NCBI GenBank assembly: GCA_037388885.1
Contig: JARRJS010000003.1
Coordinates: 4,422-68,421, forward strand
Length of the DNA: 64,000 bases
Reading direction: 5' to 3'
Source: Gemmatimonadota bacterium
GTDB lineage: Bacteria; Gemmatimonadota; Gemmatimonadetes; Longimicrobiales; RSA9
Part shown: piece after piece, positions 16,801 through 35,115 of the stretch
Position numbering within the stretch: the first letter of the stretch is position 1
Layout: each line of letters begins with the position of its first letter
Position numbers and translations under genes: made by a program
The notes under the pieces: model-generated
Seen by the model: the letters and a program-made list of their open reading frames with translations, nothing else
What the model was told of the DNA's origin: nothing
Database searches by the model: none

Positions 16801-16854
16801 GACAATCTTCCGCAGCTTATGCAGTTCGTGACCACCATCAATGTCAGCTTTTAG
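13801..16854 (+). CDS. SusC/RagA-family TonB-linked outer-membrane transporter
   Basis: GGAGG lies upstream of the ATG. A signal peptide is followed by a CarboxypepD_reg domain (GAIGGTVVAGKTLRPLAGAQVVLMGTKRGTLTDSNGRFLIPGV). The plug carries the GVINIITKKG signature. The barrel is about 1000 aa and ends ...TINVSF. A SusD-like gene follows immediately. Confidence 0.92.
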   Translation: MRQEALASFKRRGMVCRSRGVALALTIGLLVVSVVPVQAQTGAIGGTVVAGKTLRPLAGAQVVLMGTKRGTLTDSNGRFLIPGVAGTTARLQVVMIGYKTETLTVPVGKLDIEVSMQVAAVALNRIVVTGQPGGARAKSIGNSVDVVDAATVASTQPVNNVQDMLDARAPAVSIMRGTGMVGAGSRIRIRGITSFSLSGNPLIYVDGIRVDNESNSGISIQAFGSAVVSRLNDFDPAQIESIQVLKGAAATTLFGTEAARGVINIITKKGAPGATTYNFTIKQGANWFSNPEGRMPTNYWRDPSGNMVALSFADLQKLYGRNIFRTGGLQTYDANVSGGSEVLRYFVAGDLTQNQGAEPNNFKNQFSGRVNLDIQPSSKIHITTSAGYVNSRTELSCEAGCGGAMWDATYSTPAHLPQYECAATGNAYGCGFQLGFRSWTPEAERAMLDYQMVHRFTGSVNLEWKPFKWMTHRLVVGTDLTEEKNPEHLPYLTNDTLIYFWGPYYSKGYTWENLTTHVYRTFDYAGTVDFDVNPHVNSSTSFGLQYYTKHMEFLQAEGDQFSAPGLSTINATATQVGVHGDYEDNFTLGMYGQEQVALNDRLFLTAAVRVDNNSAFGSDFQWVVYPKASLSWVLNEEPAVRRRMPDWIDAFKLRMAYGESGQQPQAFSALRTYEPVTGSQDRPAITPQAVGNPNLGPERVKEIEAGFDAGLFNDRVGAEFTYFHNRTVDGILLRPVPPSSGFPGSQYVNAGEITGHGIEVTVHGSVLNLKNFGWDLAFNVSTNHTKVTKLYGNDTTIVTGSTQYKLGYPANAWFRERAVSATYDPTTGRATNIMCDDGNGGTTPCYGPNGEVLAPRVYMGNTQPTTTGGITSTFMIFSRLQLNTVVDFSLGNRKWDNNLRVRCQIFLTCLENMNPEQYDPALIAGIQSNDILNQWIINDASFAKLREVSLRYTMPASFAQKIGAKRASITIAGRNLHTWSKWTGLDPENMFLGGPTFLEQDNLPQLMQFVTTINVSF

Positions 16855-16869: not shown

Positions 16870-18156
16870 ATGATTACGAGGATGAAGAAGTGCGGCGCAT
16901 TCGGCAAAGCCGGCCGGGACCTTGCGATCCTGTTCCTGAGCATGTCGGTGTTGGCGGCTTGCGACACGAGTCGCTTCCTGAATGTCACCGCGCCGAGCCG
17001 GCTGCCGGCGGCCGATTTGGAATCGCCTTCGAACGCACCGCTTCTGGTCGACGGCGCCGTGGAGGACTTTGGCTGCGCGTTCGCATCCGTGGTGCTCGTG
17101 GAGGCGATCGTGAGTGATGAGTTCTCCGACGCGCAGCTGGGCGCGGCGGCCTGGCCGTACGACCGCCGGGATGCGAATACGCAACCGAGCGGCATCTACG
17201 GCACCAGCGGCTGCGACAGCAACCAGAATCCGGGCGTGTACCGGCCCCTGTCCACGGCACGTTTCTCAGCCGACAACGCCCTGAAGCTGCTACAGGGCTG
17301 GACCGACGCGGAGGTGCCGAAGCGGGACTCGCTGATAGCCGTGGCGGCCCTGTATTCAGCGTACAGCTACACATGGCTCGGCATGACCATGTGCAACGCG
17401 GCTATTGACGAGGGTCCGGAGATCGGCCAGCAGGATTTGTTCGCCCTGGCGGAGGACAAGTTCAACCTGGCGATCCAGGAAGGAGGGACGGCCGGGCTCA
17501 CCGACCTTGTCAACGCGGCCTACGTCGGCCGGGCCCGGGTCCGTTTGTTCCAGGGCGACATGAGCGGGGCGATCAGCGACGCCCAGCAGGTGCCTGCCGG
17601 CTTCGTCTACAATGCCGATTACTCGAGCGCCAACAACCGTCGCTACAACCGGGTCTTTGCATCCAACGTGCAGTACCGGATGTACTCCGTGGAGGACCAG
17701 GACCGCGCCTTGATGACGGCAGGCGTCGTGGACCCGCGGACGGTAGCGCAGGATTCGCACCAGGCGGGTGCCGACGGCAGCGACGTCTGGGTTCAGACGA
17801 AGTATACCAGCTTCTCGAGCCCGATTCCCATTGCCAAATACGAAGAGGCACAGCTCATCCTGGCAGAGGCCGAAGGCGGCCAGGCGGCGGTGGCCATCAT
17901 CAACGGGCTGCGTGACGAAGTCGGTCTGCCGCATTTCCAGAGCACGGATCCTCAGGCGATCATGAACCAGGTGATCGATGAGCGTCGCAAGGTCTTGTTC
18001 GTGGAAGGGCAGCGCCAGTACGACATCGAGCGATTCAATCTGCCACAGGTCCCCGCGCCGGGTACGGCGTACCCGGTCAAGGGTGGCACGTATGGCAACA
18101 CGACGTGCTTCCCGCTTCCCAATGTGGAGCGCTTCAACAATCCGAACATTCCTTGA
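16870..18156 (+). CDS. SusD/RagB-family nutrient-binding outer-membrane lipoprotein
   Basis: The gene starts 15 nt after susC. It has lipobox LAAC and an alpha-helical TPR-like composition. The C-terminal region (EEAQLILAEAEGG...ERRKVLFVEGQRQYDIERF) is typical of SusD-like proteins. Confidence 0.88.
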   Translation: MITRMKKCGAFGKAGRDLAILFLSMSVLAACDTSRFLNVTAPSRLPAADLESPSNAPLLVDGAVEDFGCAFASVVLVEAIVSDEFSDAQLGAAAWPYDRRDANTQPSGIYGTSGCDSNQNPGVYRPLSTARFSADNALKLLQGWTDAEVPKRDSLIAVAALYSAYSYTWLGMTMCNAAIDEGPEIGQQDLFALAEDKFNLAIQEGGTAGLTDLVNAAYVGRARVRLFQGDMSGAISDAQQVPAGFVYNADYSSANNRRYNRVFASNVQYRMYSVEDQDRALMTAGVVDPRTVAQDSHQAGADGSDVWVQTKYTSFSSPIPIAKYEEAQLILAEAEGGQAAVAIINGLRDEVGLPHFQSTDPQAIMNQVIDERRKVLFVEGQRQYDIERFNLPQVPAPGTAYPVKGGTYGNTTCFPLPNVERFNNPNIP

Positions 18157-18164
18157 CTTGTGAC

Positions 18165-18195
18165 CAGCCCCGGAGCCGAATCGGCTCCGGGGCTG
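18165..18195 (+). terminator. Strong GC-rich hairpin after susD (candidate intrinsic terminator/attenuator)
   Basis: CAGCCCCGGAGCC-gaatc-GGCTCCGGGGCTG forms a 13-14 bp perfect stem followed by TTGTGTATCTC. It lies 9 nt after the susD stop and 40 nt before the next start. Confidence 0.65.
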
Positions 18196-18235
18196 TTGTG
18201 TATCTCGGTCACAGGTGCATCCGGGCGCCACCAAA

Positions 18236-19801
18236 ATGAACGCAATCGAGGGAAGGACCCGTCGCGGGCGCTCACGCTTCGTCGCGTTGGCCCTGCTGCT
18301 GCTTTTTGTGCTGCCACAGGGGTGGCTCGCCGGTCAGGAGCCGCCGCTCACCGGGCTGGACGGCTACATCCGGAACGCGATGCAGCAATGGGGCATTGCC
18401 GGCCTGGCCATCGCCGTGGTCCACGACGACTCGGTGGTCTTCGCACAAGGCTACGGCGTGCGTCAAGTGGGGAAGCCCGACCCGGTGGATACACACACGC
18501 TCTTCGCCATCGGCTCGAACACCAAGTTCTTCACTGCCGTTGCACTGGGCACGCTGGTCGATCAGGGCAAGATGGACTGGGATGCTCCGGTCACGACGTA
18601 CCTGCCCTGGTTCCAGCTATACGACCCATACGTGACTCGCGAGTTCACCGTGGGTGACGCGTTGTCCCACGACAGCGGGCTGGGCCGGCGTGGTGATCTG
18701 CTCTGGTACGGCTCGACGTACAGCCGGGACGAGGTGTTGCACCGCATCCGCTATCTGAAGCCTATCTCCAGCTTCCGTGCGAAGTTCGGCTACCAGAACA
18801 TCATGGTCATGGCGGCCGGCCAGGCCGGTGGGGCGGCCGCCGGCGAGAGTTGGGACTCCCTGGTGACCGGCCGGATTCTGCGGCCCTTGGGCATGGCCCA
18901 GACCAACACCAGCGTGCGCGACCTCGCAGGGCTGCCCGATGTCGCGCAGCCGCACGTCTGGCATGAAGGCAAGCCCACGCCCGTGCCGTGGCGAAACATC
19001 GACAACATCGGGCCTGCCGGCTCGATCAACTCCAACGTGATGGACATGTCGCATTGGCTGCGCATGCTGCTCGATGACGGCCGCTTCGGTGGAGAGCAGA
19101 TCATCAAGCCGGCTACGCTACAGCGGATCGAAGCGCCGCATACGGTCATGCCGTTCTCGCAGGACAGTCTGTTTCCTTCAATACACTTCGTGTTCTACGG
19201 CTACGGCATCGGCATGGACGATTACCACGGCGTGAAGGTGCTACAGCACACCGGCGGCATCGATGGCATGCTGTCGCAGGTGGCACTGATCCCCGAGAGG
19301 CATCTGGGCCTCGTCGTGTTGACGAACACCGAAGGCCACAACGCGCTGTTTACGGCCCTCATGTGGCGCGTGTTCGATGCCTACCTGGGCGCGTCGCCGC
19401 GGGACTGGAGCACGATCCTGCTGGAGCGGACGAAGAAACAGGAAGCGGCCGCGGCCGCCCGTTGGAAGAAGCGGCAGGAGGAGCGAAAGACGGGCACGCA
19501 TCCGTCGCTGTCGTTGTCCGCATATGCGGGTACGTACCGGAACGAGATGTACGGGGACCTGGACGTCCAATATGACGGGAAGAAGCTGGTCGTGCATTTC
19601 GGCCCGTCGTTCACCGGGGACCTCACGCACTGGCACTACGACACCTTCCTTGCCAACTGGCGCAGCATCCGTGAAGGCCGCGCGTTCATGAACTTCCATC
19701 TCGGGATAGACGGCAAGGTCGACTCCGTCGAGGTGCAGGGCATCGCGTCGTTTGCGCGAGTCGTAGAGCAGGCAGAGCAGAAGGACACGGGCGGGCGCTG
19801 A
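18236..19801 (+). CDS. Exported serine hydrolase, beta-lactamase/R61 DD-peptidase fold (S12-like) with C-terminal extra domain
   Basis: A signal peptide (RFVALALLLLFVLPQGWLAGQ) is present. The three motifs are SxxK (GSNTK), YxN (GYQN) and HxG (QHTGG), as in Streptomyces R61 DD-peptidase / D-aminopeptidase-type enzymes. The C-terminal roughly 120 aa are DUF3471-like. Confidence 0.85.
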   Translation: MNAIEGRTRRGRSRFVALALLLLFVLPQGWLAGQEPPLTGLDGYIRNAMQQWGIAGLAIAVVHDDSVVFAQGYGVRQVGKPDPVDTHTLFAIGSNTKFFTAVALGTLVDQGKMDWDAPVTTYLPWFQLYDPYVTREFTVGDALSHDSGLGRRGDLLWYGSTYSRDEVLHRIRYLKPISSFRAKFGYQNIMVMAAGQAGGAAAGESWDSLVTGRILRPLGMAQTNTSVRDLAGLPDVAQPHVWHEGKPTPVPWRNIDNIGPAGSINSNVMDMSHWLRMLLDDGRFGGEQIIKPATLQRIEAPHTVMPFSQDSLFPSIHFVFYGYGIGMDDYHGVKVLQHTGGIDGMLSQVALIPERHLGLVVLTNTEGHNALFTALMWRVFDAYLGASPRDWSTILLERTKKQEAAAAARWKKRQEERKTGTHPSLSLSAYAGTYRNEMYGDLDVQYDGKKLVVHFGPSFTGDLTHWHYDTFLANWRSIREGRAFMNFHLGIDGKVDSVEVQGIASFARVVEQAEQKDTGGR

Positions 19802-19842: not shown

Positions 19843-21525
19843 ATGAACATCGCTGGTCGTTTCCGGCCACCTGCCGTCGCGCTACTGTCTCTGGGCGTCG
19901 CCCTCGGTTGCGCTGCACGGTCTTCGCGTCCGGTTGCGGTCCGACCGCAGGAGTCGGCTCCGTACGACGTGGTGATTCGCGGCGGCCGGGTGCTCGATGG
20001 CGCCGGCAACCCGTGGATCGCCGCGGATGTGGCCATCAAGGACGGACGGTTCGCGAAGATCGGGCGCGTGGAGGGGCGGGGCAGGGTGGAGATCGATGCG
20101 TCGGGCGACTACGTGTCTCCCGGCTGGATCGACATGATGGATCAATCAGGCAGGGCCCTGTTGAAGAGCGGTCTGGCCGTGAACAAGCTGCGCGAGGGCG
20201 TTACCACGGCGATCGCCGGCGAAGGAGGTCCGCCGGTGCCGGCTGACTCCATGCGCGCGTACTTCGACACGCTGGAACGCCAGGGCATCAGTCTCAACTT
20301 CGGCATCTACTACAACGAGACGCAGGCGCGCGTCGCAGTCATGGGGCAGGTCGCGCGGGATCCGACGCCCGCGGAGCTGACGCGCATGAAGGCGATCATG
20401 GACACGGCCATGGTCCAGGGCGCGCAGGGCATGACCACGGCGTTGATCTACCCGCCGGCGAGTTATTCGAAGACGCCGGAGCTGATCGCGGTGGCGCGTG
20501 AAGCTGCCCGGTACGGCGGGATCTACGCCAGCCATGTGCGAGGCGAAGGCAAGGAGGTGCTGGACGCCATCGGGGAAGCCATCCGCATCGGCGAGCAGGC
20601 GGGACTGCCGGTGGAGATCTTCCATCTGAAAGTGGCGTACAAGCCCGCCTGGGGCGTGCTCATGCCGCAGGTAGGCCGGCTCATCGATGCTGCGCGCGCC
20701 CGGGGCGATGAGGTGTCTGCGGACATGTACGTGTACACCGCGGGCGGAACGGGTCTGGAGGCGACGATCCCGTCCTGGGCCCATGAGGGAGGGGTGGACT
20801 CGCTCAAGGCGCGCCTGGCGCGGCCCGCCGTGCGGGCCCGGCTGAAGCGCGAGGTCCAGCAGGGCTCGCCCGGCTGGTGGAACATCGTCGAGGCGTCCGG
20901 GGGCTGGGACGGCATCATCCTGGCCAACGCGCGCAACCCTGCGAACGCACATTTCGAGGGTGAGTCCATCGCTCAGATCGCGGACGAGGAGCACAAGGAC
21001 CCCGCGGACGCGGCCTGGGACCTGGTGGTGCAGGGTGATGGGCGGGTCACGGCGATCTATTTCATGATGAGCGAGAAGGACATCGAGACGGCGCTCAGGT
21101 TCCCGTGGCTCAGCATCGGCAGCGATGCCGGGGCGTCGGTGGGGGGGAAGGGCGACGAGCTCGGGCTGCCGCATCCGCGGGCGTACGGCAATTTCCCCCG
21201 CGTCATCGCGCGCTACGTGCGGGATGAGCACGTGCTGACCCTGCCGGAGGCGATCCGTAAGATGACATCCTGGCCTGCCACGCGGATGCGCCTCCAGGAC
21301 CGCGGCGTGATCCGCGCGGGCGACTGGGCGGACGTGACGATCTTCAACTACGACGAAATCCAGGATGAGGCCACGTATGACCATCCCAGGCGCTATGCGA
21401 AAGGCGTGGACTATGTGCTTGTCAACGGCAAAGTGGTCGTGGACCACGGACGCCACACCGGCGCGAAGCCGGGCATGGTCCTCTACGGCCCGGGCTACGT
21501 TCCGGCCCCGTCCGCGGGGCACTGA
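19843..21525 (+). CDS. D-aminoacylase (N-acyl-D-amino-acid deacylase) family amidohydrolase, lipoprotein
   Basis: The protein has lipobox LGC and the N-terminus YDVVIRGGRVLDGAGNPWIAADVAIKDGRFAKIG. Family motifs YASHVRGEG, EIFHLK and IGSDAG are present. The expected HxH after PGWID is replaced by MMD (see findings). Confidence 0.8.
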   Translation: MNIAGRFRPPAVALLSLGVALGCAARSSRPVAVRPQESAPYDVVIRGGRVLDGAGNPWIAADVAIKDGRFAKIGRVEGRGRVEIDASGDYVSPGWIDMMDQSGRALLKSGLAVNKLREGVTTAIAGEGGPPVPADSMRAYFDTLERQGISLNFGIYYNETQARVAVMGQVARDPTPAELTRMKAIMDTAMVQGAQGMTTALIYPPASYSKTPELIAVAREAARYGGIYASHVRGEGKEVLDAIGEAIRIGEQAGLPVEIFHLKVAYKPAWGVLMPQVGRLIDAARARGDEVSADMYVYTAGGTGLEATIPSWAHEGGVDSLKARLARPAVRARLKREVQQGSPGWWNIVEASGGWDGIILANARNPANAHFEGESIAQIADEEHKDPADAAWDLVVQGDGRVTAIYFMMSEKDIETALRFPWLSIGSDAGASVGGKGDELGLPHPRAYGNFPRVIARYVRDEHVLTLPEAIRKMTSWPATRMRLQDRGVIRAGDWADVTIFNYDEIQDEATYDHPRRYAKGVDYVLVNGKVVVDHGRHTGAKPGMVLYGPGYVPAPSAGH

Positions 21526-21526
21526 C

Positions 21527-23395
21527 ATGCGGCGCGCCGCCGTCTCCGCCGTGCTGACGCTCGCGCTGCTGCCGGCGTTCGGGTCGGCGCAGCAGGGCGG
21601 GGACGTATCCGCGCGCTACGTCCGCCGGGAGGTCATGATCCCCATGCGTGACGGCGTGCGCCTGCATACGATCATCTACTCACCGCCGTCGCCGGGACCG
21701 CACCCGTTCATCCTCGAGCGCACGCCGTACGGCATCGCCCGTTCGGCACGCGCGCTGGACAATTCGCTACGGCCCATGGCCGAGGACAGCGGCGGCTACA
21801 TCTTCGTGTTCCAGGACATCCGCGGCCGCTACGGTTCCGAAGGCCGGTTTGTGATGCAGCGTCCGCCACGCGATCCGGCGGACAGCACGGCGATCGACGA
21901 AGGCACCGATACCTACGACACCATCGACTGGCTGCTGGAGAACGTGCCACACAACAACGGCAAGGTGGGCATGCTGGGCGTGTCGTACCCCGGCTGGCTG
22001 ACGGTCATGGCCATGCTGGACCCGCACCCGGCGCTCAAGGCGGTGTCACCCCAGGCCTCGCCCGCCGACATGTTCATCGGCGATGACTTCCACCACAACG
22101 GCGCCTTCCGCCTCAGCTACGGTTTTGAGTACGCCGCCATGATGGAGACCTCCAAGGTCAACGCCAACTTCTCCTTCGACCGCTACGACACCTACCAGTG
22201 GTACCTGGCGCTGGGCCCGCTGTCGAACGTGAACGCCCGCTACCTGCACGGGAAGATCCCGACCTGGAACGACTACGTGGCACACCCGAACTACGACGCG
22301 TTCTGGCAGCGGCGCGCAGTGACACCATACCTGACGCGCGTCACGGTGCCCACGTTGAACGTGGCCGGCTGGTGGGACCAGGAGGACTTCTACGGACCGA
22401 TCACCATCTACCGCGAGCTGGAGAAGCACGACTCGCAGAACCGCAACTTCCTGGTCGTAGGCCCGTGGAACCACGGCGGCTGGAGCCGCGGCCCGGGCCG
22501 GCGCCTGGGGCGCATCGACTTCGGAAGCGCCACGGGTCAGTACTTCCGGACGCGCATCGAGGCGCCGTTCTTCGCGCATTACCTGAAGGGCCGGGACCTG
22601 CCGCGGGAGCCGGAGGCGGTGACGTTCGAGGCAGGTGACAATCAATGGCACACGTGGTCGGCGTGGCCGCCGAAGACGGACGTGCGGGACGCGGACCTCT
22701 ACCTGCACGGTGATGGCAACCTCAGCTTCGACGCCCCGAGCGACGCGGGCGTCGTGAGCTACCTCTCCGACCCGGCACACCCGGTGCCGTACCGCCACCG
22801 GCCCATCGAGCCGACGTACTTCCCGGGCGGTTCGGGCTGGTACACCTGGCTGCTTGAGGACCAACGGTTCGTGGACAACCGCCCGGACGTGGCCACGTGG
22901 GTGTCGGCCCCACTCGACCACGATGTCACCATCACGGGCGACATCACGGCGCGTCTCTTCGCTGCCACCACGGGGAGCGCGGCCGACTGGGTCGTCAAGC
23001 TCATCGACGTCTACCCGGAGAAGTACGAGCCGAACCCGAAGCTGGGCGGGTGGGAGCTGATGGTGGCGAACGACGTCTTCCGCGGCCGCTTCCGGAACGG
23101 TTACACCCACCCCGAGCCCATCACGCCCGGCAAGGTGACGGCCTACACCATCGACCTGCACACCCAGGACTACCGGTTTCTGAAGGGGCACCGGATCATG
23201 GTCCAGGTGCAGAGCACGTGGTTTCCCATCATTGACCGGAACCCGCAGACGTACGTGCCGAACATCTTCAAGGCCCGCGCAAGCGATTACCGCAAGGCCA
23301 CGCAGAGCATCTACGCATCGCCACGTTACCCTTCTCGCATCAGCGTGCACGTCGTGACCGATGCGCAGGGGGCATCGGGATCGCGCAGTCATTGA
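21527..23395 (+). CDS. CocE/NonD-family (S15, Xaa-Pro dipeptidyl-peptidase / alpha-amino-acid ester hydrolase-like) serine hydrolase, exported
   Basis: The ATG at 21527 lies 1 nt after the upstream stop. A signal peptide (AVLTLALLPAFGSAQQ) and the nucleophile elbow GVSYPGW are present. A C-terminal jelly-roll-type domain (MVQVQSTWFP) is also recognisable. Confidence 0.85.
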   Translation: MRRAAVSAVLTLALLPAFGSAQQGGDVSARYVRREVMIPMRDGVRLHTIIYSPPSPGPHPFILERTPYGIARSARALDNSLRPMAEDSGGYIFVFQDIRGRYGSEGRFVMQRPPRDPADSTAIDEGTDTYDTIDWLLENVPHNNGKVGMLGVSYPGWLTVMAMLDPHPALKAVSPQASPADMFIGDDFHHNGAFRLSYGFEYAAMMETSKVNANFSFDRYDTYQWYLALGPLSNVNARYLHGKIPTWNDYVAHPNYDAFWQRRAVTPYLTRVTVPTLNVAGWWDQEDFYGPITIYRELEKHDSQNRNFLVVGPWNHGGWSRGPGRRLGRIDFGSATGQYFRTRIEAPFFAHYLKGRDLPREPEAVTFEAGDNQWHTWSAWPPKTDVRDADLYLHGDGNLSFDAPSDAGVVSYLSDPAHPVPYRHRPIEPTYFPGGSGWYTWLLEDQRFVDNRPDVATWVSAPLDHDVTITGDITARLFAATTGSAADWVVKLIDVYPEKYEPNPKLGGWELMVANDVFRGRFRNGYTHPEPITPGKVTAYTIDLHTQDYRFLKGHRIMVQVQSTWFPIIDRNPQTYVPNIFKARASDYRKATQSIYASPRYPSRISVHVVTDAQGASGSRSH

Positions 23396-23432
23396 AAGAC
23401 GTGCAACGGAGCTCGACCGGGGGACAGAGATC

Positions 23433-25865
23433 ATGCAGCGATACGGAAGCCGGATGAACCGGCGCATTGTTCCGATCATGTTGGCTGCCGTGGCGCTTTC
23501 CGGCTGCGGCAGGCGCGGCGGCGACACGGGCCGAGCACAGGGCTACGACGACGTCGTCCATGCGCTTCAGTCGTTCGTTCGCCATGAGCGCGCGGAAAAG
23601 GGCATTCCGGGCCTTTCTCTGGCGCTGGTGGACAGTCAGAGGGTCGTGTGGGCGGCCGGCTTCGGCTGGGCGGATTCCACGGCCGGCGTGCGCGCCACGC
23701 CCGAGACCGTGTACCGCGTGGGCTCCGTGTCCAAGCTGTTCACCGACATCGCGATCATGCGGCTGGTCGAGCGCGGCGAGCTGGACCTGGACGCGCCCAT
23801 CCAGAAATACCTGCCGTCGTTCGAGCCACGGAATCCGTTCGGCGGCACGATCACAATCCGGGAGCTGAGCGCGCACCGCGCGGGGCTCACGCGGGAGCCG
23901 CCGGTGGGCAGCTACTTCGATGACAGCAGTCCCACGCTTGCGCAGACGGTCGCATCGCTGAACCAGACCACGCTGCTGTATGCGCCGGGCAGCCACACGA
24001 AGTATTCCAACGCGGGCATCGCCGTGCTCGGTTACGTGCTCCAGAAGACGCAGGGCGCGTCCTTCTACCCGTATCTGAAGAGCACGCTGCTCGACTCCAT
24101 GGGATTGCACGACAGCGCCTTCCAACCGCTGCCTGCGCTCGAGCAGCGGCTGGCCAAAGGCTACATGTGGAGCTACGACGGGAAATTCTTCGATGCGCCC
24201 ACCTTCCAGCTGGGCATGGGGCCGTGCGGCAGCATGTACAGCACCGTGCTCGACCTGGCGCGCTTCGAGCGCATCCTGTTCGCGGGCGGCGTGGCGCCGG
24301 ACGGCCCGCGGATCCTGCAGCGTAAGACGCTGGATGAGATGTGGACGCCGCAGTTCGCGCCGAAGGATGCGAGGACAGGTTACGGCATCGGGTTCCACAT
24401 CGGGCAACTCGCCGGGCACCGGGTCGTGGGGCACGACGGCGCCATCTACGGTTTCGCGACAACGCTGACCGCGCTGCCCGACGACGGGCTCGGCGTCGTC
24501 GTCATCGCTTCGTTGGACGGCGTGAACGCCACCACCGACCGGATCGCAAACGCCGCATTGCGCCTGATGCTGGCCCGGCGCGAGCACCGGCCGCTGCCGG
24601 CGCTGGACACGACCACGGCGCTCGGCGCCGCGGACGCGCTCCGCCTCCAGGGTCGCTATCTGAAGGATGGCCGCGGCGTCGACCTCAAGGAATATGAAGG
24701 ACACCTGTATATGATGCCGACGGCCGGCGGGTTGCGCAGCGAAGTGCGACGACTCCCGGACGACAGCCTCGTGGTGGATGGGCGATTGGCGTACGGCCCG
24801 CGCATCACGCCCCTGGACGACGGGCGGCTGGTGCTCGGTGTCGACACGCTGTCGCGGGTGCCGACGGAGCATCCGGCAGCGCTGGTGACCCGGCCGAAAC
24901 CGAAGGCCGACATTTCCCCGGCGTTCCACGGACTGATAGGCGAGTACGGCTGGCCGTATGAGACGCTCTACATCTTCGAGAAGGACGGCCGGCTCCATGC
25001 GCTCATCGAATGGTTCTTCGAATATCCGCTGAAACGGGTGTCCCGGGACGTCTACGCCTTCCCCGATTGGGGGCTTTACGACGGCCAGAAGATCGTATTC
25101 GAACGCGACGCGGACGGGCAGGCACAGGCTGCCATCGCCGCCAATGTCACGTTCAAACGTATCCCGCTTCCGGGTGACGAGAACGGAGTTTCGTTCCGTA
25201 TCACGCCGGTGAAGCCGGTGTCGGAGTTGCGTACGGAGGCGTTGAAGGCTTCACCGCCCGCCGAGAAAGGTGATTTCAGAAAGCCCGACCTGGTGGAGCT
25301 GCGCAGTCTCGACCCGACCATCAAGTACGACATCCGCTACGCGACGACGAACAACTTCATGGGACACCCGTTCTACACCTCCGCCCACGCCTTCATGCAG
25401 CGTCCGGCGGCCGAAGCGGTGGCACGCGTCTCCCGGCTGCTGCGCCCGCTGGGCTATGGACTCTTGATCCACGACGCGTACCGGCCGTGGTACGTGACCA
25501 AGATGTTCTGGGACGGGACACCCGTGGACAAACACCAGTTCGTCGCAGACCCGAGCGAGGGTTCCCACCACAACCGCGGCTGCGCGGTCGATCTCACGCT
25601 CTACGACCTGAAGACAGGCCGGTCCGTGCGGACCACCGGCGGTTACGACGAGATGTCCGAGCGGTCCTACCCGCTATATCCTGGTGGCACCAATCATCAG
25701 CGCTGGCTGCGCGACTTGCTACGACACGCCATGGAGTCCCAGGGCTTCACCGTATACGAGTTCGAGTGGTGGCACTTCGATTACAAGGACTGGCAGCGTT
25801 ACCCGATCCTGAACATCACGTTCGAGCAGCTCGCCAGTCAGCACAGCGCCGAGGGTAGTCGTTGA
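23433..25865 (+). CDS. Fusion lipoprotein: R61/class-C-type serine hydrolase + linker domain + VanX/DdpX-type zinc D-Ala-D-Ala dipeptidase
   Basis: Lipobox LSGC is present. The N-terminal domain has SxxK (GSVSK), YxN (KYSN) and HxG (GHDG). The C-terminal domain (about 25281..25862) has SHHNRGCAVD (His..Asp zinc ligands, 25563..25592) and EFEWWHFDY (Glu/His), matching the VanX motifs. Confidence 0.85.
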   Translation: MQRYGSRMNRRIVPIMLAAVALSGCGRRGGDTGRAQGYDDVVHALQSFVRHERAEKGIPGLSLALVDSQRVVWAAGFGWADSTAGVRATPETVYRVGSVSKLFTDIAIMRLVERGELDLDAPIQKYLPSFEPRNPFGGTITIRELSAHRAGLTREPPVGSYFDDSSPTLAQTVASLNQTTLLYAPGSHTKYSNAGIAVLGYVLQKTQGASFYPYLKSTLLDSMGLHDSAFQPLPALEQRLAKGYMWSYDGKFFDAPTFQLGMGPCGSMYSTVLDLARFERILFAGGVAPDGPRILQRKTLDEMWTPQFAPKDARTGYGIGFHIGQLAGHRVVGHDGAIYGFATTLTALPDDGLGVVVIASLDGVNATTDRIANAALRLMLARREHRPLPALDTTTALGAADALRLQGRYLKDGRGVDLKEYEGHLYMMPTAGGLRSEVRRLPDDSLVVDGRLAYGPRITPLDDGRLVLGVDTLSRVPTEHPAALVTRPKPKADISPAFHGLIGEYGWPYETLYIFEKDGRLHALIEWFFEYPLKRVSRDVYAFPDWGLYDGQKIVFERDADGQAQAAIAANVTFKRIPLPGDENGVSFRITPVKPVSELRTEALKASPPAEKGDFRKPDLVELRSLDPTIKYDIRYATTNNFMGHPFYTSAHAFMQRPAAEAVARVSRLLRPLGYGLLIHDAYRPWYVTKMFWDGTPVDKHQFVADPSEGSHHNRGCAVDLTLYDLKTGRSVRTTGGYDEMSERSYPLYPGGTNHQRWLRDLLRHAMESQGFTVYEFEWWHFDYKDWQRYPILNITFEQLASQHSAEGSR

Positions 25866-26039: not shown

Positions 26040-27686
26040 TCAGTGCCCGGTCGTGGCTGTGTCCGACGGCGCGATGGGGTACGCGTATGCCGCGGCGGCG
26101 ATCTCCCCCAGCGTCTGGCCAGCGATCTTCGTCACACCGTCCTCCAGGTCGGACGGGATTGGCACGCGGTTCAAGTAGAACGCGAACGCGAGATGCCGGC
26201 CGTTCACCGTCGTGATGTAGCCCGCGAGTCCCTTGGCCGTAAGGATGAGATGCTGGTTCAGCTTGTCGTACGCGCCGAACGTCCCCGTCTTCGCATGTAC
26301 GTGGCCGACGGCCGGGGAATGCGTCTGGATATTCCAGAGTGTGCCGTCCACGCCCAGGACGGGCAGCGCATTGTACAGATCGTTGAAATCATCACGCTCC
26401 CGCATGGCTGCCAGATAGCGAACCATGAAGTCGGGCGCGAAGAATGCGGACTGTGCGCCGCCCGCACCGTCCCCTTGCGACGCGCCGCTCAGGTCTAGCC
26501 CCAACTTGCCGAGGAAATCACGTTCGAGCTCGAAGCCTTTCTTCTCCGCATTCTGGTTCTCACCGCCCAGCACAGAGCCCAGGATGTAGGGCGTCATGCT
26601 GGCGTGCAGGTTCTGACTCACCTTCAGCGTGACCTTCAGTTCCTGCGAGAACGGCGGCGACGTATGCTCGGCAACGACATGGTCCGGTGTGTAAGAAGAC
26701 GAAAGTGCCTGGAAATCCACGACCTCGTTATACGGCGGCGGCTCTGCGCTCACACCGTCTTCAGCCAGCGCTTCGGAAAGCACCACTTCCGCGAAACGGC
26801 TCGGCTGCGGCACCGCGTACGAGAACAACCACGGCTGCGAGCCCGTCGGCATGCTGCCCGTGACCGTGACCATGTGGCTGCCATCCACCATGGTGCTGTC
26901 ATGCGCCCAATGGATCTCCACTTTGGTGGAATCCGCCGGGCCTGTCTCCGTCTTGTTCACGAACTGGACGTAGCTGGTCTGGGGCGAAGGCTGGATCGTC
27001 AGGGGCGCACTCAGCGAATCACCCGGCCCGATCGTCACGTCCACCAGGTTGTCGTTCACCGCAACCGGCGAGATCACCACGCCGCTGCCGAGCTCCCGAC
27101 TGCCCTCCGGGAACAACGACACGTCGACCAGCACGTGCCCCGTCACCCGCTTGATCCCGTGCTTCGCGATCTGGTCCGCCAACTGACGGATCACCTGCAA
27201 CGGATCACCCGGAACGGCTTTTGTATACTTGCTTCCATCGTACGCGTGATCCTCGTTCTCGAACGCCAGCGTTCCGTCCGGTTGAATCCGGTTCGACAAG
27301 TCCGGATCACCGCTCGCTACCAGCACGATATCGCCGTCCAACGTACCGTCCGCCGCGATGGGGCCGGTGCGGTACACCCGCGTCTTGAACCGGTGGTCCG
27401 CACCCAGCAATGCCAACGCCGTACCCTCCGTCACCAACTTGGTCGTCGACGCCGGGGTGAACAGCTTGTCCCCGTTGTGCACATAGAGCGGCTGGTGGTC
27501 GTCCAGCGAGTACACCTCCAGACCCCAGATCGAGTGCTCAAAGGCCGGACGCGCCATGATGGCCTTCACCACGTCCTGGAAGGTCGTGTCCTGTTGCGCT
27601 CGCACGCCCGCAGGAACAAGAACGCAGAACGCGAGGATCGCCGGTGCGACGCTGCGGTAGCCCAACCCTCGTCGGAAAGTTGTCAT
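26040..27686 (-). CDS. dacB: PBP4-type D-alanyl-D-alanine carboxypeptidase/endopeptidase (peptidase S13)
   Basis: ATG at 27686 is followed by a signal peptide (AILAFCVLVPAGVRAQQ). The SxxK (ASTTK), SxN-like (VSQNLHA) and KTG (HAKTGTF) motifs are present, with the inserted domains typical of PBP4. Confidence 0.85.
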   Translation of the reverse strand: MTTFRRGLGYRSVAPAILAFCVLVPAGVRAQQDTTFQDVVKAIMARPAFEHSIWGLEVYSLDDHQPLYVHNGDKLFTPASTTKLVTEGTALALLGADHRFKTRVYRTGPIAADGTLDGDIVLVASGDPDLSNRIQPDGTLAFENEDHAYDGSKYTKAVPGDPLQVIRQLADQIAKHGIKRVTGHVLVDVSLFPEGSRELGSGVVISPVAVNDNLVDVTIGPGDSLSAPLTIQPSPQTSYVQFVNKTETGPADSTKVEIHWAHDSTMVDGSHMVTVTGSMPTGSQPWLFSYAVPQPSRFAEVVLSEALAEDGVSAEPPPYNEVVDFQALSSSYTPDHVVAEHTSPPFSQELKVTLKVSQNLHASMTPYILGSVLGGENQNAEKKGFELERDFLGKLGLDLSGASQGDGAGGAQSAFFAPDFMVRYLAAMRERDDFNDLYNALPVLGVDGTLWNIQTHSPAVGHVHAKTGTFGAYDKLNQHLILTAKGLAGYITTVNGRHLAFAFYLNRVPIPSDLEDGVTKIAGQTLGEIAAAAYAYPIAPSDTATTGH

Positions 27687-27866: not shown

Positions 27867-28577
27867 ATGTCACACAGCCAGCGCCAGAAGCGACACACGG
27901 ATCGAGGTACTCGTGCCTATGAACGCCTTCGCCAGTTGATCGTGCATGGTCAACTGGCTCCAGGCGCTTGGATTATCGAGAGTGACGTGGCCGACCGCCT
28001 GGGACTGAGCCGTACGCCTGTACGGGCAGCGCTGCAGCGATTGCATCAAGAGGGTTACGTGACCATCACGCGCCGCGGGCGGCAGGCGCGGGCTGCGGTG
28101 GCGCCCCTGACCCGGGAGGACGCGCGCGAATTGTTCGGGATGGTGGGCGCGATCGAGGCCTTCACGGCAGCGCGCACCGCGGAATTGCCGGACGGTCCCC
28201 GTGCCGCCGCCGCCGAGACCCTGGCCGCGCTGAACGGAGCGCTCGCGGAAGCCGCGGCCGCCAGCCGGCCCGAGCCCGCGCGCATCTTCGACCTGGATAT
28301 GACCTTTCACCGGCATTACGTAGAGGTCGGCGGAGGGCCCCGAACCATCGCGCTCCATGACGCCATCAAACCGCAATCTGAACGCTACATCCGCCTCTAT
28401 ACCAGCGCCCTGATCGACGAGATCGGGACTTCCGTGAAGGAGCATGAAGCCATTGTGGACGCCGTTCGCCGTGGTGATGTCGATGCGGCACGGGACGGAG
28501 TTCGAATCAACTGGGCCAACGCGAGCGGCCGGCTGAGCGGCGTCATCGACACGCACGGCGAAAAGGGCAGCTGGTAG
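27867..28577 (+). CDS. GntR-family transcriptional regulator (FadR-like, FCD C-terminal domain)
   Basis: A winged HTH (AYERLRQLIVHGQLAPGAWIIESDVADRLGLSRTPVRAALQRLHQEGYV) is followed by a helical effector domain of about 150 aa. Confidence 0.88.
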   Translation: MSHSQRQKRHTDRGTRAYERLRQLIVHGQLAPGAWIIESDVADRLGLSRTPVRAALQRLHQEGYVTITRRGRQARAAVAPLTREDARELFGMVGAIEAFTAARTAELPDGPRAAAAETLAALNGALAEAAAASRPEPARIFDLDMTFHRHYVEVGGGPRTIALHDAIKPQSERYIRLYTSALIDEIGTSVKEHEAIVDAVRRGDVDAARDGVRINWANASGRLSGVIDTHGEKGSW

Positions 28578-28720: not shown

Positions 28721-29587
28721 ATGAACGGAGGGGCAGCAGCGAGGGAAGGACTGTTGGAGCGCAGGGTGGAAATTCGTGCGTTGAAGACGCAGGAAGAGTT
28801 GAAGGCATGCGTGGCCTTGCAACGGGAGACGTGGGGCGACGACTATCACGACGTCGTGCCGGCGAGCATTCTACAGATCGCCCAGAAGGTGGGTGGTGTC
28901 GTGGCAGGTGCGTTCAACGAAAACGAGTTGGTCGGCTTCGTTTTCGGGCTGACGGGCACACGGCGAGGGCGCCTGGTGCATTGGTCGCACATGCTGGCGG
29001 TGAAGGACCGACTCCGGGACCAGGGCATCGGGCGGTATTTGAAGGAGTTCCAGCGTGACCGCTTGCGGGAGCAAGGCGTGGGCGTCATGCACTGGACGTT
29101 CGACCCGCTGGTGGCACGGAATGCTTACCTGAACTTGAAGCGGTTGGGCGTGGAGGTGGAGGAGTACGTGTGTGAAATGTACGGGGATACGGGCAGCGCC
29201 CTCCACCGTTTCGGCACGGATCGCTTCGTGGTGGGTTGGGAAACGTCCCGGAGGCCGGGGGGGCGCCTTGCAGAGGAGCAGAAGTGGCAGGATGCGCCTG
29301 TGCTGAACGGGCTGAAGGATGGAAGACGGGTCCCGGACGGCGGGCCCGTGCGGATCCAGATACCGTCGGATATCGAAGCCGTTTACGCGGATTCCCCGGC
29401 GGAGGCTATGCGTTGGCGGCGGACGACGCGGGATGCGTTCGAACAGTGTTTCGAGCAGGCTTACGGCGTCGCCGGCTTTCAACGGGAGAAGGTGAGCGGT
29501 CGTTGCTTTTATCTGCTTGAGCGGGGCGTGGATGGCGCGGGCAAGGTAGTGCAGTACGTGAGTCGCGGTTCGGGTGGCAAAGCGTGA
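28721..29587 (+). CDS. Large GNAT-superfamily acyltransferase (COG3375-like), cytoplasmic
   Basis: AGGAG lies 8 nt upstream. The 288-aa protein has a GNAT core (HMLAVKDRLRDQGIGRYLKEFQRDRLREQG) and no signal peptide. Confidence 0.65.
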   Translation: MNGGAAAREGLLERRVEIRALKTQEELKACVALQRETWGDDYHDVVPASILQIAQKVGGVVAGAFNENELVGFVFGLTGTRRGRLVHWSHMLAVKDRLRDQGIGRYLKEFQRDRLREQGVGVMHWTFDPLVARNAYLNLKRLGVEVEEYVCEMYGDTGSALHRFGTDRFVVGWETSRRPGGRLAEEQKWQDAPVLNGLKDGRRVPDGGPVRIQIPSDIEAVYADSPAEAMRWRRTTRDAFEQCFEQAYGVAGFQREKVSGRCFYLLERGVDGAGKVVQYVSRGSGGKA

Positions 29588-29630
29588 TCCGGACGCTGCA
29601 GGCCGACCGGGGAACGGAGTGCGGCCGGCC

Positions 29631-30977
29631 ATGACATCGACTGACAAGGGATTGACCCGAATCCTGGGATTCCACGATCTCCTGTTGATCGTCATGGGGA
29701 CGGTGATCGGATCCGGGATCTTCCTGGTGCCGGGTGCCGTGCTGCGCCAGACCGGCGGGCGTGTGGGGACGGCGTTGCTGGTGTGGCTGTTGGCGGGCGT
29801 GCTTTCGCTGCTCGGGGCGCTGACGTATGGCGAGCTGGGTGCGATGCAACCGGAGGTTGGCGGCCTCTACGTCTACATCCGGGACACGTTCGGTCCGCTG
29901 CCGGCGTTCCTATACGGCTGGACGCTGTTCTTTGTCATCAGCAGTGGGTCGGTGGCCACACTGGCCGTAGCGTTTGCTGCGTACCTGCAGCCATTCGTGG
30001 CCCTCGGTCCGGGTGCGCGGAAGCTGGTCGCCATCGCAATGGTCGCTGTGGTGGCGGCTGTGAACGTCAGGGGGACCGGGCAAAGTGCGCGAGTCCAGGG
30101 CTGGTCGACCGGCATCAAGGTGATCGCCCTGCTTGTCATGAGCGCCTTGCTGCTGGCCGTGGGCCGTGGGTTTGGTGGAGGTGTGCCGCTGTGGCCGACA
30201 CACGTCACAAGTTCGGTGCTGGCCGGTTTAGGGCCGGCGATGGTGGCGACGTTGTGGGCGTATGAGGGCTGGCAGTACGTCACGTTCTCCGCAGGCGAGA
30301 CGCGGGATCCGCAGCGTGTGTTCCCACGCGGGATCATCGCGGGTACGGCCGGGTTGATCGTCGTCTATCTGCTGGCCAACCTGGGCTATGTGGCGGCCCT
30401 GGGATCGCGGGGTGTCGCGGCGTCCGACAGCGTCGCCGCTGCAGCCGTGCAGGCGTTGTTCGGGTCGCGCGCCGCTCAGGTGGTCGCGCTAATCATCCTG
30501 ATCGCCATGTTCAGCGCGGCAAACGGTTTGACGCTGACGGCAACGCGTGTCTACTACGCCATGGCCCGTGATCGGCTCTTCTTTCGCCGGTTGGCGGAAG
30601 TGCATCCCCGTTTCGGCACGCCTGCTTTCGCCATTCTGCTCAGCTCTGCCTGGGCGATGCTGCTGGCATTGACCGGCACGTTCGATGAGTTGTTGACCTA
30701 CGTGGTCTTCACCGGTTGGATATTTTACGCGCTCGCTGCCTTGAGCATCTTCGGCTATCGACGCTCGAAGCCCGATGCGCCTCGGCCCTTCCGCGTACCC
30801 GGGTATCCGTGGACCCCGATACTCTTCGTGCTCTCCGCCCTGGGAATCGTCCTGAACACACTGTTCGTTCAGCCAAAACAGGCGCTCGCCGGCATCGCCG
30901 TGGTGCTGGTGGGTGTGCCTGCGTTCCTGATGTGGCGCCGCCGCGGCATGTCTTCCCGCCCAGCGGCCGATGGCTGA
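29631..30977 (+). CDS. APC-superfamily amino-acid permease
   Basis: About 12 TM segments are predicted. The N-terminal signature is LLIVMGTVIGSGIFLVPGAVL. The stop overlaps the next start (TGATG). Confidence 0.88.
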   Translation: MTSTDKGLTRILGFHDLLLIVMGTVIGSGIFLVPGAVLRQTGGRVGTALLVWLLAGVLSLLGALTYGELGAMQPEVGGLYVYIRDTFGPLPAFLYGWTLFFVISSGSVATLAVAFAAYLQPFVALGPGARKLVAIAMVAVVAAVNVRGTGQSARVQGWSTGIKVIALLVMSALLLAVGRGFGGGVPLWPTHVTSSVLAGLGPAMVATLWAYEGWQYVTFSAGETRDPQRVFPRGIIAGTAGLIVVYLLANLGYVAALGSRGVAASDSVAAAAVQALFGSRAAQVVALIILIAMFSAANGLTLTATRVYYAMARDRLFFRRLAEVHPRFGTPAFAILLSSAWAMLLALTGTFDELLTYVVFTGWIFYALAALSIFGYRRSKPDAPRPFRVPGYPWTPILFVLSALGIVLNTLFVQPKQALAGIAVVLVGVPAFLMWRRRGMSSRPAADG

Positions 30978-32359
30978 TGCGGCCCCGATCTGAGGGGTCG
31001 AAACGATCCCGCCCGCGCGCCGGCGTGACACGTGCGGGTGGGACCCTGCCCGTCTGGATCTGCGGTGTGGCTGCGGTCTCCGTATCGCTGGTCTTCGGTT
31101 GTTCGTCGAAGGACGTGTCAACCCTGGTGACCCCGCCGGACACGACAACGGTCGCTCCGATCGTCGTCACGGGCGTGGCGGAACCGGGCATGGCCAGCTA
31201 CGACACCGTGATCAGCTCTTTGATGCGTGAATACAACATCCCGGGCGGAGCGGTGGGGGTGGTGAAGGACGGGAAGTTGGTGTTCGCCCATGGGTACGGG
31301 TACGCGGACGTGGCGAACCAGGTCTCGGTGAAGCCGGATGCACTCTTTCGGCTGGCGAGCCTGTCGAAAGCAATCACGGCGGCGACGATCCTGCACCTCG
31401 TGGAGGAGGGGGTGTTGGGGTTGGACGACCCAGCATTCTCTTACCTCTCGGATCTGAGCCCACCGACAGGGAAGACGGAGGATGCCCGGCTGTCGCGCAT
31501 CACGATCCGGCAATTGTTGCAGCACTCGGGTGGTTGGGACCGCGATGCGACGTTCGACCCCATGTTCGAGTCGACGATGATCGCCGACTCGTTGGGCGTG
31601 GCGGCGCCGGCGTCGGCGGATGACGTGATCCGGTACATGACGGGTCGACCGCTGGATTTCGACCCGGGGGTGAGGTACGCGTATTCGAATTTCGGCTACG
31701 TGGTGCTGGGGGCGATTATCCAGCGGCTGACGGGAGAGCCGTACGTCGACTACGTAAAAGCGCAGGTCTTGCAGAACATGGGTATTCAGCGCATGGCGCA
31801 GGGCCACACCCTGCTGAAGGATTCCGTGCCAGGTGAGGTGCGCTATTACGCGGTGGGCGGGCAGGGTCTGGACTATCCGCTGGTCCAGTCGGTCTTCCCG
31901 GGGCAGGGGCTCGTGCCGCAAGCGTATGGCGGTTTCTACATGGAAGCCATGGCCGCGAATGGTGGTTGGGTGTCGAACACCATGGATCTGCTGCGCTTCA
32001 TCACGTCGGTGGACGGATTGCACAACCGGCCGCAGTTCCTGGCGGATTCGACGATTCGGCAGATGATCGCTCAGCCCACCGCTAACAACACCTGGCCGCC
32101 GGGCTCGGCTTACTGGTATGCCATGGGTTGGTTGGTGCGGCCGTCCAACGGGGATGCCAACTGGTGGCACACTGGGGGCTTGCCCGGGACGACGACGGAG
32201 ATGGTGCGTGCCTATAATGGAGTGGAGTGGGTGGCCCTCTTCAACGCCCGGGCGGTGAACGACGCCGGCTTCACGGCGGCCCTGGACAACAGTCTGTGGA
32301 CGGCACTGCAGGGTGTTACTTCATGGCCCACCACGGACCTCTTCCCGCAATATCCCTGA
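30977..32359 (+). CDS. Exported lipoprotein serine hydrolase, beta-lactamase/R61 DD-peptidase fold
   Basis: The ATG overlaps the permease stop codon. Lipobox LVFGC is present, with SxxK (ASLSK), YxN (AYSN) and HxG (WHTGG). Confidence 0.85.
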   Translation: MRPRSEGSKRSRPRAGVTRAGGTLPVWICGVAAVSVSLVFGCSSKDVSTLVTPPDTTTVAPIVVTGVAEPGMASYDTVISSLMREYNIPGGAVGVVKDGKLVFAHGYGYADVANQVSVKPDALFRLASLSKAITAATILHLVEEGVLGLDDPAFSYLSDLSPPTGKTEDARLSRITIRQLLQHSGGWDRDATFDPMFESTMIADSLGVAAPASADDVIRYMTGRPLDFDPGVRYAYSNFGYVVLGAIIQRLTGEPYVDYVKAQVLQNMGIQRMAQGHTLLKDSVPGEVRYYAVGGQGLDYPLVQSVFPGQGLVPQAYGGFYMEAMAANGGWVSNTMDLLRFITSVDGLHNRPQFLADSTIRQMIAQPTANNTWPPGSAYWYAMGWLVRPSNGDANWWHTGGLPGTTTEMVRAYNGVEWVALFNARAVNDAGFTAALDNSLWTALQGVTSWPTTDLFPQYP

Positions 32360-34867: not shown

Positions 34868-35115
34868 GGAGATTTCGTGGTTGGGTCGGATGGAACCGTG
34901 TACAGGGGCGGCCCCGCGTCCCGCATTGGCAAAACAACAGTAAAGACTGAAGGCCGTACCGCGCAATCAATTTCAACAATGGTTGGCAACAATGCCGTAT
35001 CGACGGCCGCCCGTTCCTTGTTCCGGTCGGGCCTGCGGCACATCGTACGGAACGTCGCATGCGTGGCTGCACCCGTCGACACGGCTGCGCATGATACCTC
35101 TGCGGGAGGCACACT

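Follow-up and report, generated by a model that had tools for sequence, protein, structure and literature searches.

A predicted exported fusion of an S12 serine peptidase unit with a VanX/DdpX-type zinc dipeptidase domain, at the end of a candidate D-peptide uptake operon in a Gemmatimonadota bacterium

The stretch of DNA analysed here (the window) comprises 64,000 nucleotides (nt) of a Gemmatimonadota bacterium (assembly GCA_037388885.1, contig JARRJS010000003.1, positions 4,422 to 68,421), and our subject is a gene on its forward strand which an earlier note, made from the sequence alone, had read as encoding a lipoprotein that joins a serine DD-peptidase-fold domain to a VanX-type zinc dipeptidase domain. 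A single open frame spans 23361..25865 of the + strand, with in-frame ATG codons at 23433 (the start given in that note; 810 amino acids, aa) and at 23454 (803 aa). Database protein P0001, which has 803 aa and is 100% identical to the query, fits the 23454 start, from which residues of the fusion protein are numbered here; the same signal peptide results from either start. The features of the gene are as follows.

23454..25865, + strand: whole fusion gene, 803 aa plus stop codon (alternative ATG at 23433)
23454..23507, + strand: predicted signal peptide MNRRIVPIMLAAVALSG, then lipobox Cys18 (LSGC), by direct sequence reading
23496-23507, + strand: lipobox LSGC, aa 15-18, by motif reading
23568..24542, + strand: S12 / beta-lactamase-fold serine peptidase domain, aa 39-363, by Pfam PF00144 and Foldseek matches to S12 enzymes
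23724-23735, + strand: SVSK motif, aa 91-94
24003-24011, + strand: YSN motif, aa 184-186
24432-24440, + strand: HDG motif, aa 327-329
24615..24857, + strand: predicted first beta-barrel accessory domain, aa 388-468, by AlphaFold models and Foldseek
24918..25163, + strand: predicted second beta-barrel accessory domain, aa 489-570, by AlphaFold models, Foldseek and alignment
25287..25796, + strand: M15 (VanX/DdpX-type) putative zinc D,D-dipeptidase domain, aa 612-781, by Pfam PF01427, the DdpX model and alignment to VanX 1r44
25476-25487, + strand: AYRP motif, aa 675-678
25563-25592, + strand: SHHNRGCAVD motif, aa 704-713, with His706-x6-Asp713
25758-25775, + strand: EFEWWH motif, aa 769-774, with Glu771-x2-His774

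The searches confirmed a signal peptide, an S12 domain, two predicted beta-barrels and an M15 domain in one putatively exported polypeptide. Both domain identities proposed from the sequence stood: PF00144 (Beta-lactamase) covers aa 39-363 with an E-value of 3.5e-68 (230.7 bits against a cut-off of 27), and PF01427 (Peptidase_M15) covers aa 612-781 with an E-value of 5.4e-33 (114.9 bits against a cut-off of 27), neither of which chance could plausibly produce. Every motif that had been quoted (SVSK, YSN, HDG, SHHNRGCAVD and EFEWWH, the lipobox LSGC included) is present. The serine domain carries the three motifs of the S12 family (Ser-x-x-Lys, Tyr-x-Asn and His/Lys-x-Gly), and its closest solved sequence relative is Pab87 (PDB 2qmi, E 2e-43); the NCBIfam model of the D-aminopeptidase DAP (NF009622) gave 68.5 bits against a cut-off of 443.

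The zinc and catalytic motifs of VanX (His-x6-Asp and Glu-x2-His), to which the note had matched the C-terminal part, were borne out by alignment of the residues on PDB 1r44. In this HMMER alignment (E 5e-22, 163 residues), window Tyr629 corresponds to VanX Tyr21, Arg677 to Arg71, Ser704 to Ser114, His706 to His116, Asp713 to Asp123, Glu771 to Glu181 and His774 to His184, and the EWWH sequence is identical in the two proteins. The predicted zinc ligands (His706, Asp713 and His774), the catalytic Glu771 and the transition-state Arg677 are therefore all in place, and we infer that the M15 domain binds zinc; its best NCBIfam match is DdpX (E 7e-42). Every catalytic residue of both the S12 and the M15 domain is invariant across an alignment of 25 sequences (the window protein and 24 close homologues) and, because the serine-site residues are invariant in this group, we expect the serine and the zinc site both to be active in the window protein.

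About 230 aa between the two catalytic domains had been left unassigned, a description that we can now replace, as AlphaFold and Foldseek point to two beta-barrel accessory domains there. AlphaFold models of the whole protein (predicted local distance difference test, pLDDT, 78; predicted template-modelling score, pTM, 0.78) and of aa 378-603 alone (pLDDT 79) both give two beta-rich domains, at aa 388-468 and 489-570, and then a helix into the M15 domain. For the isolated middle region the top Foldseek match was the D-aminopeptidase DAP of Ochrobactrum anthropi (1ei5, E 2.2e-6, 223 columns), followed by IS11, Lip3, Ulm16 and SurE; all five we take to be S12-fold enzymes with C-terminal barrel domains. 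The full model gave IS11, Pab87, Lip3 and DAP as its top matches, over 525-613 columns that extend well beyond the catalytic domain. A three-domain fold of the DAP type is found in the model, with a low template-modelling score (TM-score) to 1ei5 because the two barrels sit in a different relative orientation. Pfam searches of the isolated middle region, from the window protein and eight homologues, gave two sub-threshold matches only, to DUF3471 (E 0.004, in the first barrel of one homologue) and to DUF7586 (E 3e-4, in the second barrel of one homologue), and a profile search of PDB sequences with the middle region gave nothing meaningful; the second barrel does carry a conserved GEYGW...IEWFFEYPL motif. 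It is thus by fold comparison only that the middle ~230 aa are identified as paired barrels like those of DAP, Pab87, IS11, SurE and Lip3, and in these models the first ~570 aa appear as a complete DAP-like unit (S12 domain and two barrels) with the M15 domain added behind.

The N-terminus (MNRRIVPIMLAAVALSGC) opens with a short run of basic residues before a hydrophobic core and the lipobox LSGC with Cys18, and it has the form of a bacterial lipoprotein signal peptide ending in [LVI][ASTVI][GAS]C (MNRRIVPIMLAAVA-LSGC). Among 120 homologues, 114 have a hydrophobic, signal-peptide-like N-terminal segment; a loose lipobox pattern occurs in 8, and is convincing in only 4 (P0001, which is the window protein, P0003, P0004 and P0012). 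Most of the 25 aligned homologues have an AQD-type region in place of the lipobox, which we read as a putative signal-peptidase-I site. Because hydrophobic N-termini are so widespread and convincing lipoboxes so few, export would appear to be a family-wide trait and the lipid anchor particular to a few sequences; the location of the fusion protein is probably periplasmic. The earlier note had set this export against VanX and DdpX, which are normally described as cytoplasmic: the export signal holds, but it is not exceptional, as PcgL of Salmonella, a D-Ala-D-Ala dipeptidase which permits growth on that dipeptide, is described as periplasmic (PMC3760250), and as there are stand-alone M15 homologues (P0239, P0241 and P0267; ~250 aa, 62-69% identity to the window M15 domain) with a hydrophobic, signal-peptide-like N-terminus.

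That these are truly one gene, in a continuous frame, is upheld by comparison with independent assemblies. We searched 5.8 billion proteins (from JGI, ENA, NCBI and Logan assemblies), and the best 120 matches listed have, apart from the window's own protein, 60-70% identity, with >90% query coverage and both Pfam domains in every case; >120 full-length protein clusters from independent metagenomes retain the S12 and M15 architecture. Across both domain junctions the 25 aligned sequences remain collinear, and their length varies only in one loop of the first barrel. A tblastn search of GTDB species genomes listed 600 matches, M15 proteins without the S12 part among these; in ~65 assemblies among the matches listed, complete chromosomes included, a single high-scoring segment pair runs in a single frame over ~aa 30-793. 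With the single open frame, the >120 full-length clusters and the single-frame matches in ~65 assemblies in hand, we rule out an assembly or frameshift artefact, and leave it next to no chance.

Going by record names, carriers of the fusion among the matches listed belong to at least six phyla. They include Gemmatimonadota; Acidobacteriota (Bryobacteraceae, Pyrinomonadaceae, Terriglobia and others); Planctomycetota, with the cultured Singulisphaera sp. Ch08 and Tautonia sp. JC769; Verrucomicrobiota; Bacteroidota (Flavobacteriaceae, Saprospiraceae and others); Ignavibacteriales; Rhodothermaceae; and metagenome-assembled genomes of Haliea and Alcaligenaceae. An exhaustive search of 50%-identity representatives found dozens of full-length proteins at 33-54% identity. 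The architecture is thus common in soil and water bacteria, and it is already machine-annotated, carrying the JGI automatic label ‘CubicO group peptidase (beta-lactamase class C family)/D-alanyl-D-alanine dipeptidase’. The suggestion that it was uncharacterised stands in so far as no paper describing an S12 and M15 fusion was found in the open-access literature searched (an absence of evidence), nor does this fusion feature among the S12 domain architectures that a survey of 2008 gives; any suggestion of rarity falls, as this is a large, multi-phylum family.

The modules of the protein also occur apart and in other combinations. Stand-alone proteins of S12 domain and barrels (~560-590 aa; P0192, P0196, P0203, P0228 and P0232) and proteins of barrels and M15 only (P0220, and P0255, which has a lipobox) have signal-peptide-like N-termini, as do the M15-only proteins mentioned above. 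Because the stand-alone modules carry such N-termini, exported VanX/DdpX-like dipeptidases appear to be frequent in environmental metagenomes. In the other direction, triple fusions of 1320-1380 aa in some Gemmatimonadaceae (P0041, P0052, P0093 and P0118; P0093 is found at L002 8001-11972 and in L004) have an added D-aminoacylase-like Amidohydro_3 domain, the window counterpart of which has a gene of its own, second upstream of the fusion gene (19843-21525), and an extra DUF3471-containing segment approximately doubles protein length in P0103, P0113, P0115, P0116 and P0120. Such fusions and fissions are ‘Rosetta-stone’ evidence, drawn from sequence, suggesting that these activities belong together.

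The fusion gene is the sixth and last in a co-directional row with intergenic gaps of <=60 nt, and the genes around it are as follows.

12391-13515, - strand: enolase-superfamily (MR_MLE) protein of the o-succinylbenzoate synthase (OSBS) / N-succinylamino-acid-racemase type (TIGR01928, 314 bits against a cut-off of 200)
13801-16854, + strand: TonB-dependent receptor, SusC-like, with a CarboxypepD_reg domain (Pfam)
16870-18156, + strand: SusD-like lipoprotein, lipobox LAAC (Pfam)
18215-19801, + strand: S12 and DUF3471 peptidase (Pfam, NCBIfam)
19843-21525, + strand: D-aminoacylase-like Amidohydro_3 amidohydrolase (Pfam, NCBIfam)
21527-23395, + strand: S15 CocE/NonD peptidase (Pfam, NCBIfam)
26040-27686, - strand: PBP4-type (S13) D-Ala-D-Ala carboxypeptidase/endopeptidase, convergent with the fusion gene (PF02113, E 2e-66; TIGR00666, 172 bits against a cut-off of 108)
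27867-28577, + strand: GntR/FCD regulator
28721-29587, + strand: GNAT acetyltransferase
29574-30977, + strand: APC amino-acid permease
30977-32359, + strand: further S12 lipoprotein

Each of the hydrolases encoded in the cluster has a signal peptide. Between the SusD-like gene and the enzyme genes, at 18165-18195, lies a strong hairpin of 14 bp (12 G-C pairs), which may act as a terminator or as an attenuator. On the - strand at 32450-34966, immediately downstream of the cluster, is a gene for a hybrid sensor kinase with MASE1, PAS, HisKA, HATPase and receiver domains. Three S12-fold genes (18215-19801, 23454-25865 and 30977-32359) and the one S13 PBP4-type gene (26040-27686, - strand) fall within 14 kb, an unusual local concentration of penicillin-binding-fold hydrolases around the fusion gene.

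We compared this neighbourhood with 82 related loci, each taken with a flank of at most 10 kb. In that range around the fusion gene, 14 of these loci have a D-aminoacylase gene, 11 an MR_MLE, 9 a GNAT, 8 a permease and 7 an S15 gene, and the loci with these neighbours are named as Gemmatimonadota, Acidobacteriota or, once, Eisenbacteria. The upstream hydrolase set also flanks the homologues in L001, L003, L006 and others; on a 5.4-Mb contig the homologue cluster runs M19 dipeptidase, S12 and DUF3471, Amidohydro_3, S15, S12 and DUF3471, fusion, and then CN-hydrolase, two more beta-lactamase-fold proteins, MR_MLE and GNAT. The MR_MLE and GNAT genes bracket the hydrolase cluster in the window and are adjacent to one another in L001 (14364-16357); the pair presumably resembles a racemase-plus-acyltransferase route from D- to L-amino acids.

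Since the two family names at hand are Beta-lactamase (PF00144) and VanX-type M15, the fusion could be imagined as an antibiotic-resistance determinant, in which a class C-like beta-lactamase is joined to a glycopeptide-resistance enzyme. We reject this reading, which we hold to be highly improbable, on curated score cut-offs and on the neighbours: the class C model NF033085 gave 83 bits against a cut-off of 415 and the VanX equivalog NF033115 92.4 bits against 320, both far under, and no vanH-, vanA-, vanR- or vanS-type family was found among the 15 neighbouring proteins scanned (10169-35913). Class C enzymes, moreover, carry KTG where the window protein has HDG, and VanX confers resistance by destroying cytoplasmic D-Ala-D-Ala, which is out of an exported enzyme's reach.

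For function, Pab87 provides a precedent: it has D-aminopeptidase activity (with D- preferred over L-Ala-pNA, the p-nitroanilide) and DD-carboxypeptidase activity, taking the terminal D-Ala off the pentapeptides of muropeptides. [quoted passage not shown] On this precedent, and given intact motifs, an export signal and the setting in an apparent uptake operon, we consider it probable, on balance, that the window protein is an exported two-site hydrolase in a TonB-dependent uptake operon for D-amino-acid-containing peptides, the most plausible being stem peptides of peptidoglycan, and their fragments, from dead cells. In this nutritional role, D-amino-acid peptides would enter the periplasm through the TonB-dependent receptor; the exported D-peptidases, the S12 half of the fusion included, would trim D-residues from the imported peptides; the VanX/DdpX-type zinc half would split D-Ala-D-Ala, or related D,D-dipeptides, into free D-amino acids; and these would be taken up by the neighbouring permease. 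In this organism the lipid anchor would tether the fusion enzyme. The uptake operon, the modular fusion and fission (D-aminoacylase included) and the asymmetric decay of the serine site described below all go beyond the earlier note.

Several observations weigh against this scavenging role. Among the 82 loci, the D-peptide gene set is not conserved outside those named as Gemmatimonadota, Acidobacteriota or Eisenbacteria, and in the same comparison the neighbour set was not seen in loci named as Planctomycetota or Bacteroidota except for one weak MR_MLE match; we therefore limit the operon argument to the clades showing the neighbours, and do not stretch it over the whole family. The M15 domain falls below the cut-off of the DdpX equivalog (NF007557, 143.1 bits against 176) as well as that of VanX given above, and the AlphaFold model is weak at the zinc-site loops (pLDDT <50 at aa 686-706 and 768-771). 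Pab87, for its part, is reported to free single D-residues by its S12 activities rather than D-Ala-D-Ala. Finally, in a census of active sites in 78 representatives of >=690 aa (50%-identity clusters, 75 of them scorable at both sites), 19 of the 75 clusters have lost the S12 site (Ser, Lys or Tyr) with the zinc site intact; serine catalysis is therefore not obligatory for the family, and in parts of it is dispensable.

The patchy neighbourhood bears on a second explanation: that the fusion is a housekeeping enzyme which remodels or recycles the wall of its own cell and does not serve the uptake of peptides from outside, its S12 part acting as an AmpH- or PBP4B-like DD-carboxypeptidase/endopeptidase and its M15 part clearing periplasmic D-Ala-D-Ala. 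The D-peptide catabolic neighbours are missing in most Planctomycetota- or Bacteroidota-named loci, a gene for a PBP4-type DD-carboxypeptidase/endopeptidase adjoins the fusion gene in the window, and the protein has a sub-threshold similarity to the NCBIfam AmpH model (94 bits against a cut-off of 266, E 9e-27). We nevertheless think such a housekeeping role unlikely here, as the TonB receptor/SusD-like head of the row, with the D-aminoacylase-like, S15, permease and GntR regulator genes, is a catabolic uptake layout, and as wall turnover in the periplasm is not known to yield free D-Ala-D-Ala.

The remainder of the census shows how lopsided the loss of active sites has been. Both sites are intact in 47/75 clusters and lost in 3/75; the S12 site is intact with the zinc site apparently ‘lost’ in 6/75, but 5 of these 6 are not genuine (one is C-terminally truncated, and four are longer proteins matched on the S12 side only), leaving only ~1 genuine case. 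The clusters with the serine site lost and the zinc site kept include P0137, P0152, P0157, P0177, P0189, P0194, P0201 and P0204, and the same pattern is seen in four genome loci (L048, L073, L077 and L078). From these sequences the zinc dipeptidase seems to be the constant element of the family and the serine fold to have turned into a pseudo-enzyme repeatedly; because the serine site has been lost repeatedly with the zinc site retained, this suggests that the serine fold may also have a binding or scaffolding role.

Taken to its limit, this would make the zinc dipeptidase the sole working catalyst, with the S12-plus-barrel unit, intact motifs or not, serving mainly for binding, scaffolding or oligomerisation; it might, for instance, capture ligands that end in D-Ala-D-Ala or build a cage like that of Pab87. 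Besides the 19 clusters which have lost SxxK or Tyr but retain H-D-E-H (and the four genome loci like them), with scarcely a genuine case of the reverse, the octamer-driving barrel of Pab87 and the existence of versions with barrels and M15 only (P0255 and P0220) are in keeping with such a module. Set against them are ~60 genome loci across phyla with both active sites intact, which thus retain the S12 site, and the invariance of the S12 catalytic residues between the window protein and all 24 close homologues, which points to selection on serine catalysis in this clade; for the window protein we regard a zinc-only enzyme as rather improbable, and we retain the two-site scavenging hydrolase as our preferred reading.

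The earlier note had also proposed sequential processing, in which D-Ala-D-Ala is released, or a stem peptide trimmed, before the dipeptide is cleaved. As a hypothesis this fits the conserved fusion and the operon context; the 19 clusters that have lost the S12 site show serine catalysis not to be obligatory for the family. For a strict order of dipeptide release and then splitting there is no documented first step, because the S12 activities of Pab87 release single residues. D-stereospecific S12 endopeptidases, such as the alkaline D-peptidase of Bacillus cereus, do make D,D-dipeptides from oligo-D-peptides, and because of them the sequential action of serine and then zinc site remains plausible.

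Going further, we suggest as a speculation, and an improbable one as a whole, a tethered two-step periplasmic D-peptide machine, in which the S12-plus-barrel unit (possibly assembled as a Pab87-like cage) would capture peptides ending in, or made up of, D-residues and pass D,D-dipeptides straight to the zinc dipeptidase, in which the penicillin-binding fold of the serine-decayed lineages would persist as a non-catalytic D-Ala-D-Ala receptor, and in which the TonB/SusD-like genes would make up a ‘D-peptide utilisation locus’ recycling cell-wall necromass. If this were true, the fusion gene would, with the TonB/SusD-like genes, represent a necromass-recycling locus of abundant soil phyla.

In soil and water, a large store of carbon and nitrogen is tied up in peptidoglycan peptides and other D-amino-acid peptides, which break down slowly and whose consumers, with their enzymes, are poorly known; the window operon, made up almost entirely of exported D-peptide hydrolases, offers a concrete candidate pathway. 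The repeated loss of the serine site with the zinc site kept is a natural experiment on how a penicillin-binding fold becomes a pseudo-enzyme. Our analysis also cautions that VanX-type genes in environmental metagenomes need not mean glycopeptide resistance.

Considering the known systems, the M15 domain resembles VanX of Enterococcus faecium (1R44) and DdpX of E. coli in its M15 family membership, its VanX active-site positions and its identical EWWH, but those are cytoplasmic, free proteins of ~200 aa, whereas the window M15 domain is predicted to be exported behind a serine peptidase unit of ~570 aa; nor is there a van operon or a ddp dipeptide ATP-binding cassette (ABC) transporter near the fusion gene. 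The VanXY-type enzymes (VanXYC and VanXYG) combine D,D-dipeptidase and D,D-carboxypeptidase activity in one polypeptide by a single M15 zinc site, in contrast to the two unrelated catalytic domains, serine and zinc, of the window protein. On the serine side, DAP of O. anthropi (1EI5) shares the order of an S12 catalytic domain and then two beta-barrels, and is the best fold match to the middle region; it lacks an M15 domain, and its barrels have no sequence-level similarity to those of the window protein. Pab87, the CubicO peptidase of Pyrococcus abyssi (2QMI) and the closest solved S12 relative, combines an S12 domain with a lipocalin-type barrel, but has one barrel rather than two and no zinc domain, and is an archaeal octamer. 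PcgL of Salmonella enterica, compared here by description only, is a nutritional enzyme of the VanX/DdpX type that is exported, and by analogy appears to be the closest functional precedent for a zinc domain acting outside the cytoplasm; unlike the fusion protein, PcgL has a single domain and is under PhoP control. By analogy with these systems the fusion would work most like a D-peptidase of the DAP/Pab87 type joined to a PcgL-like exported dipeptidase.

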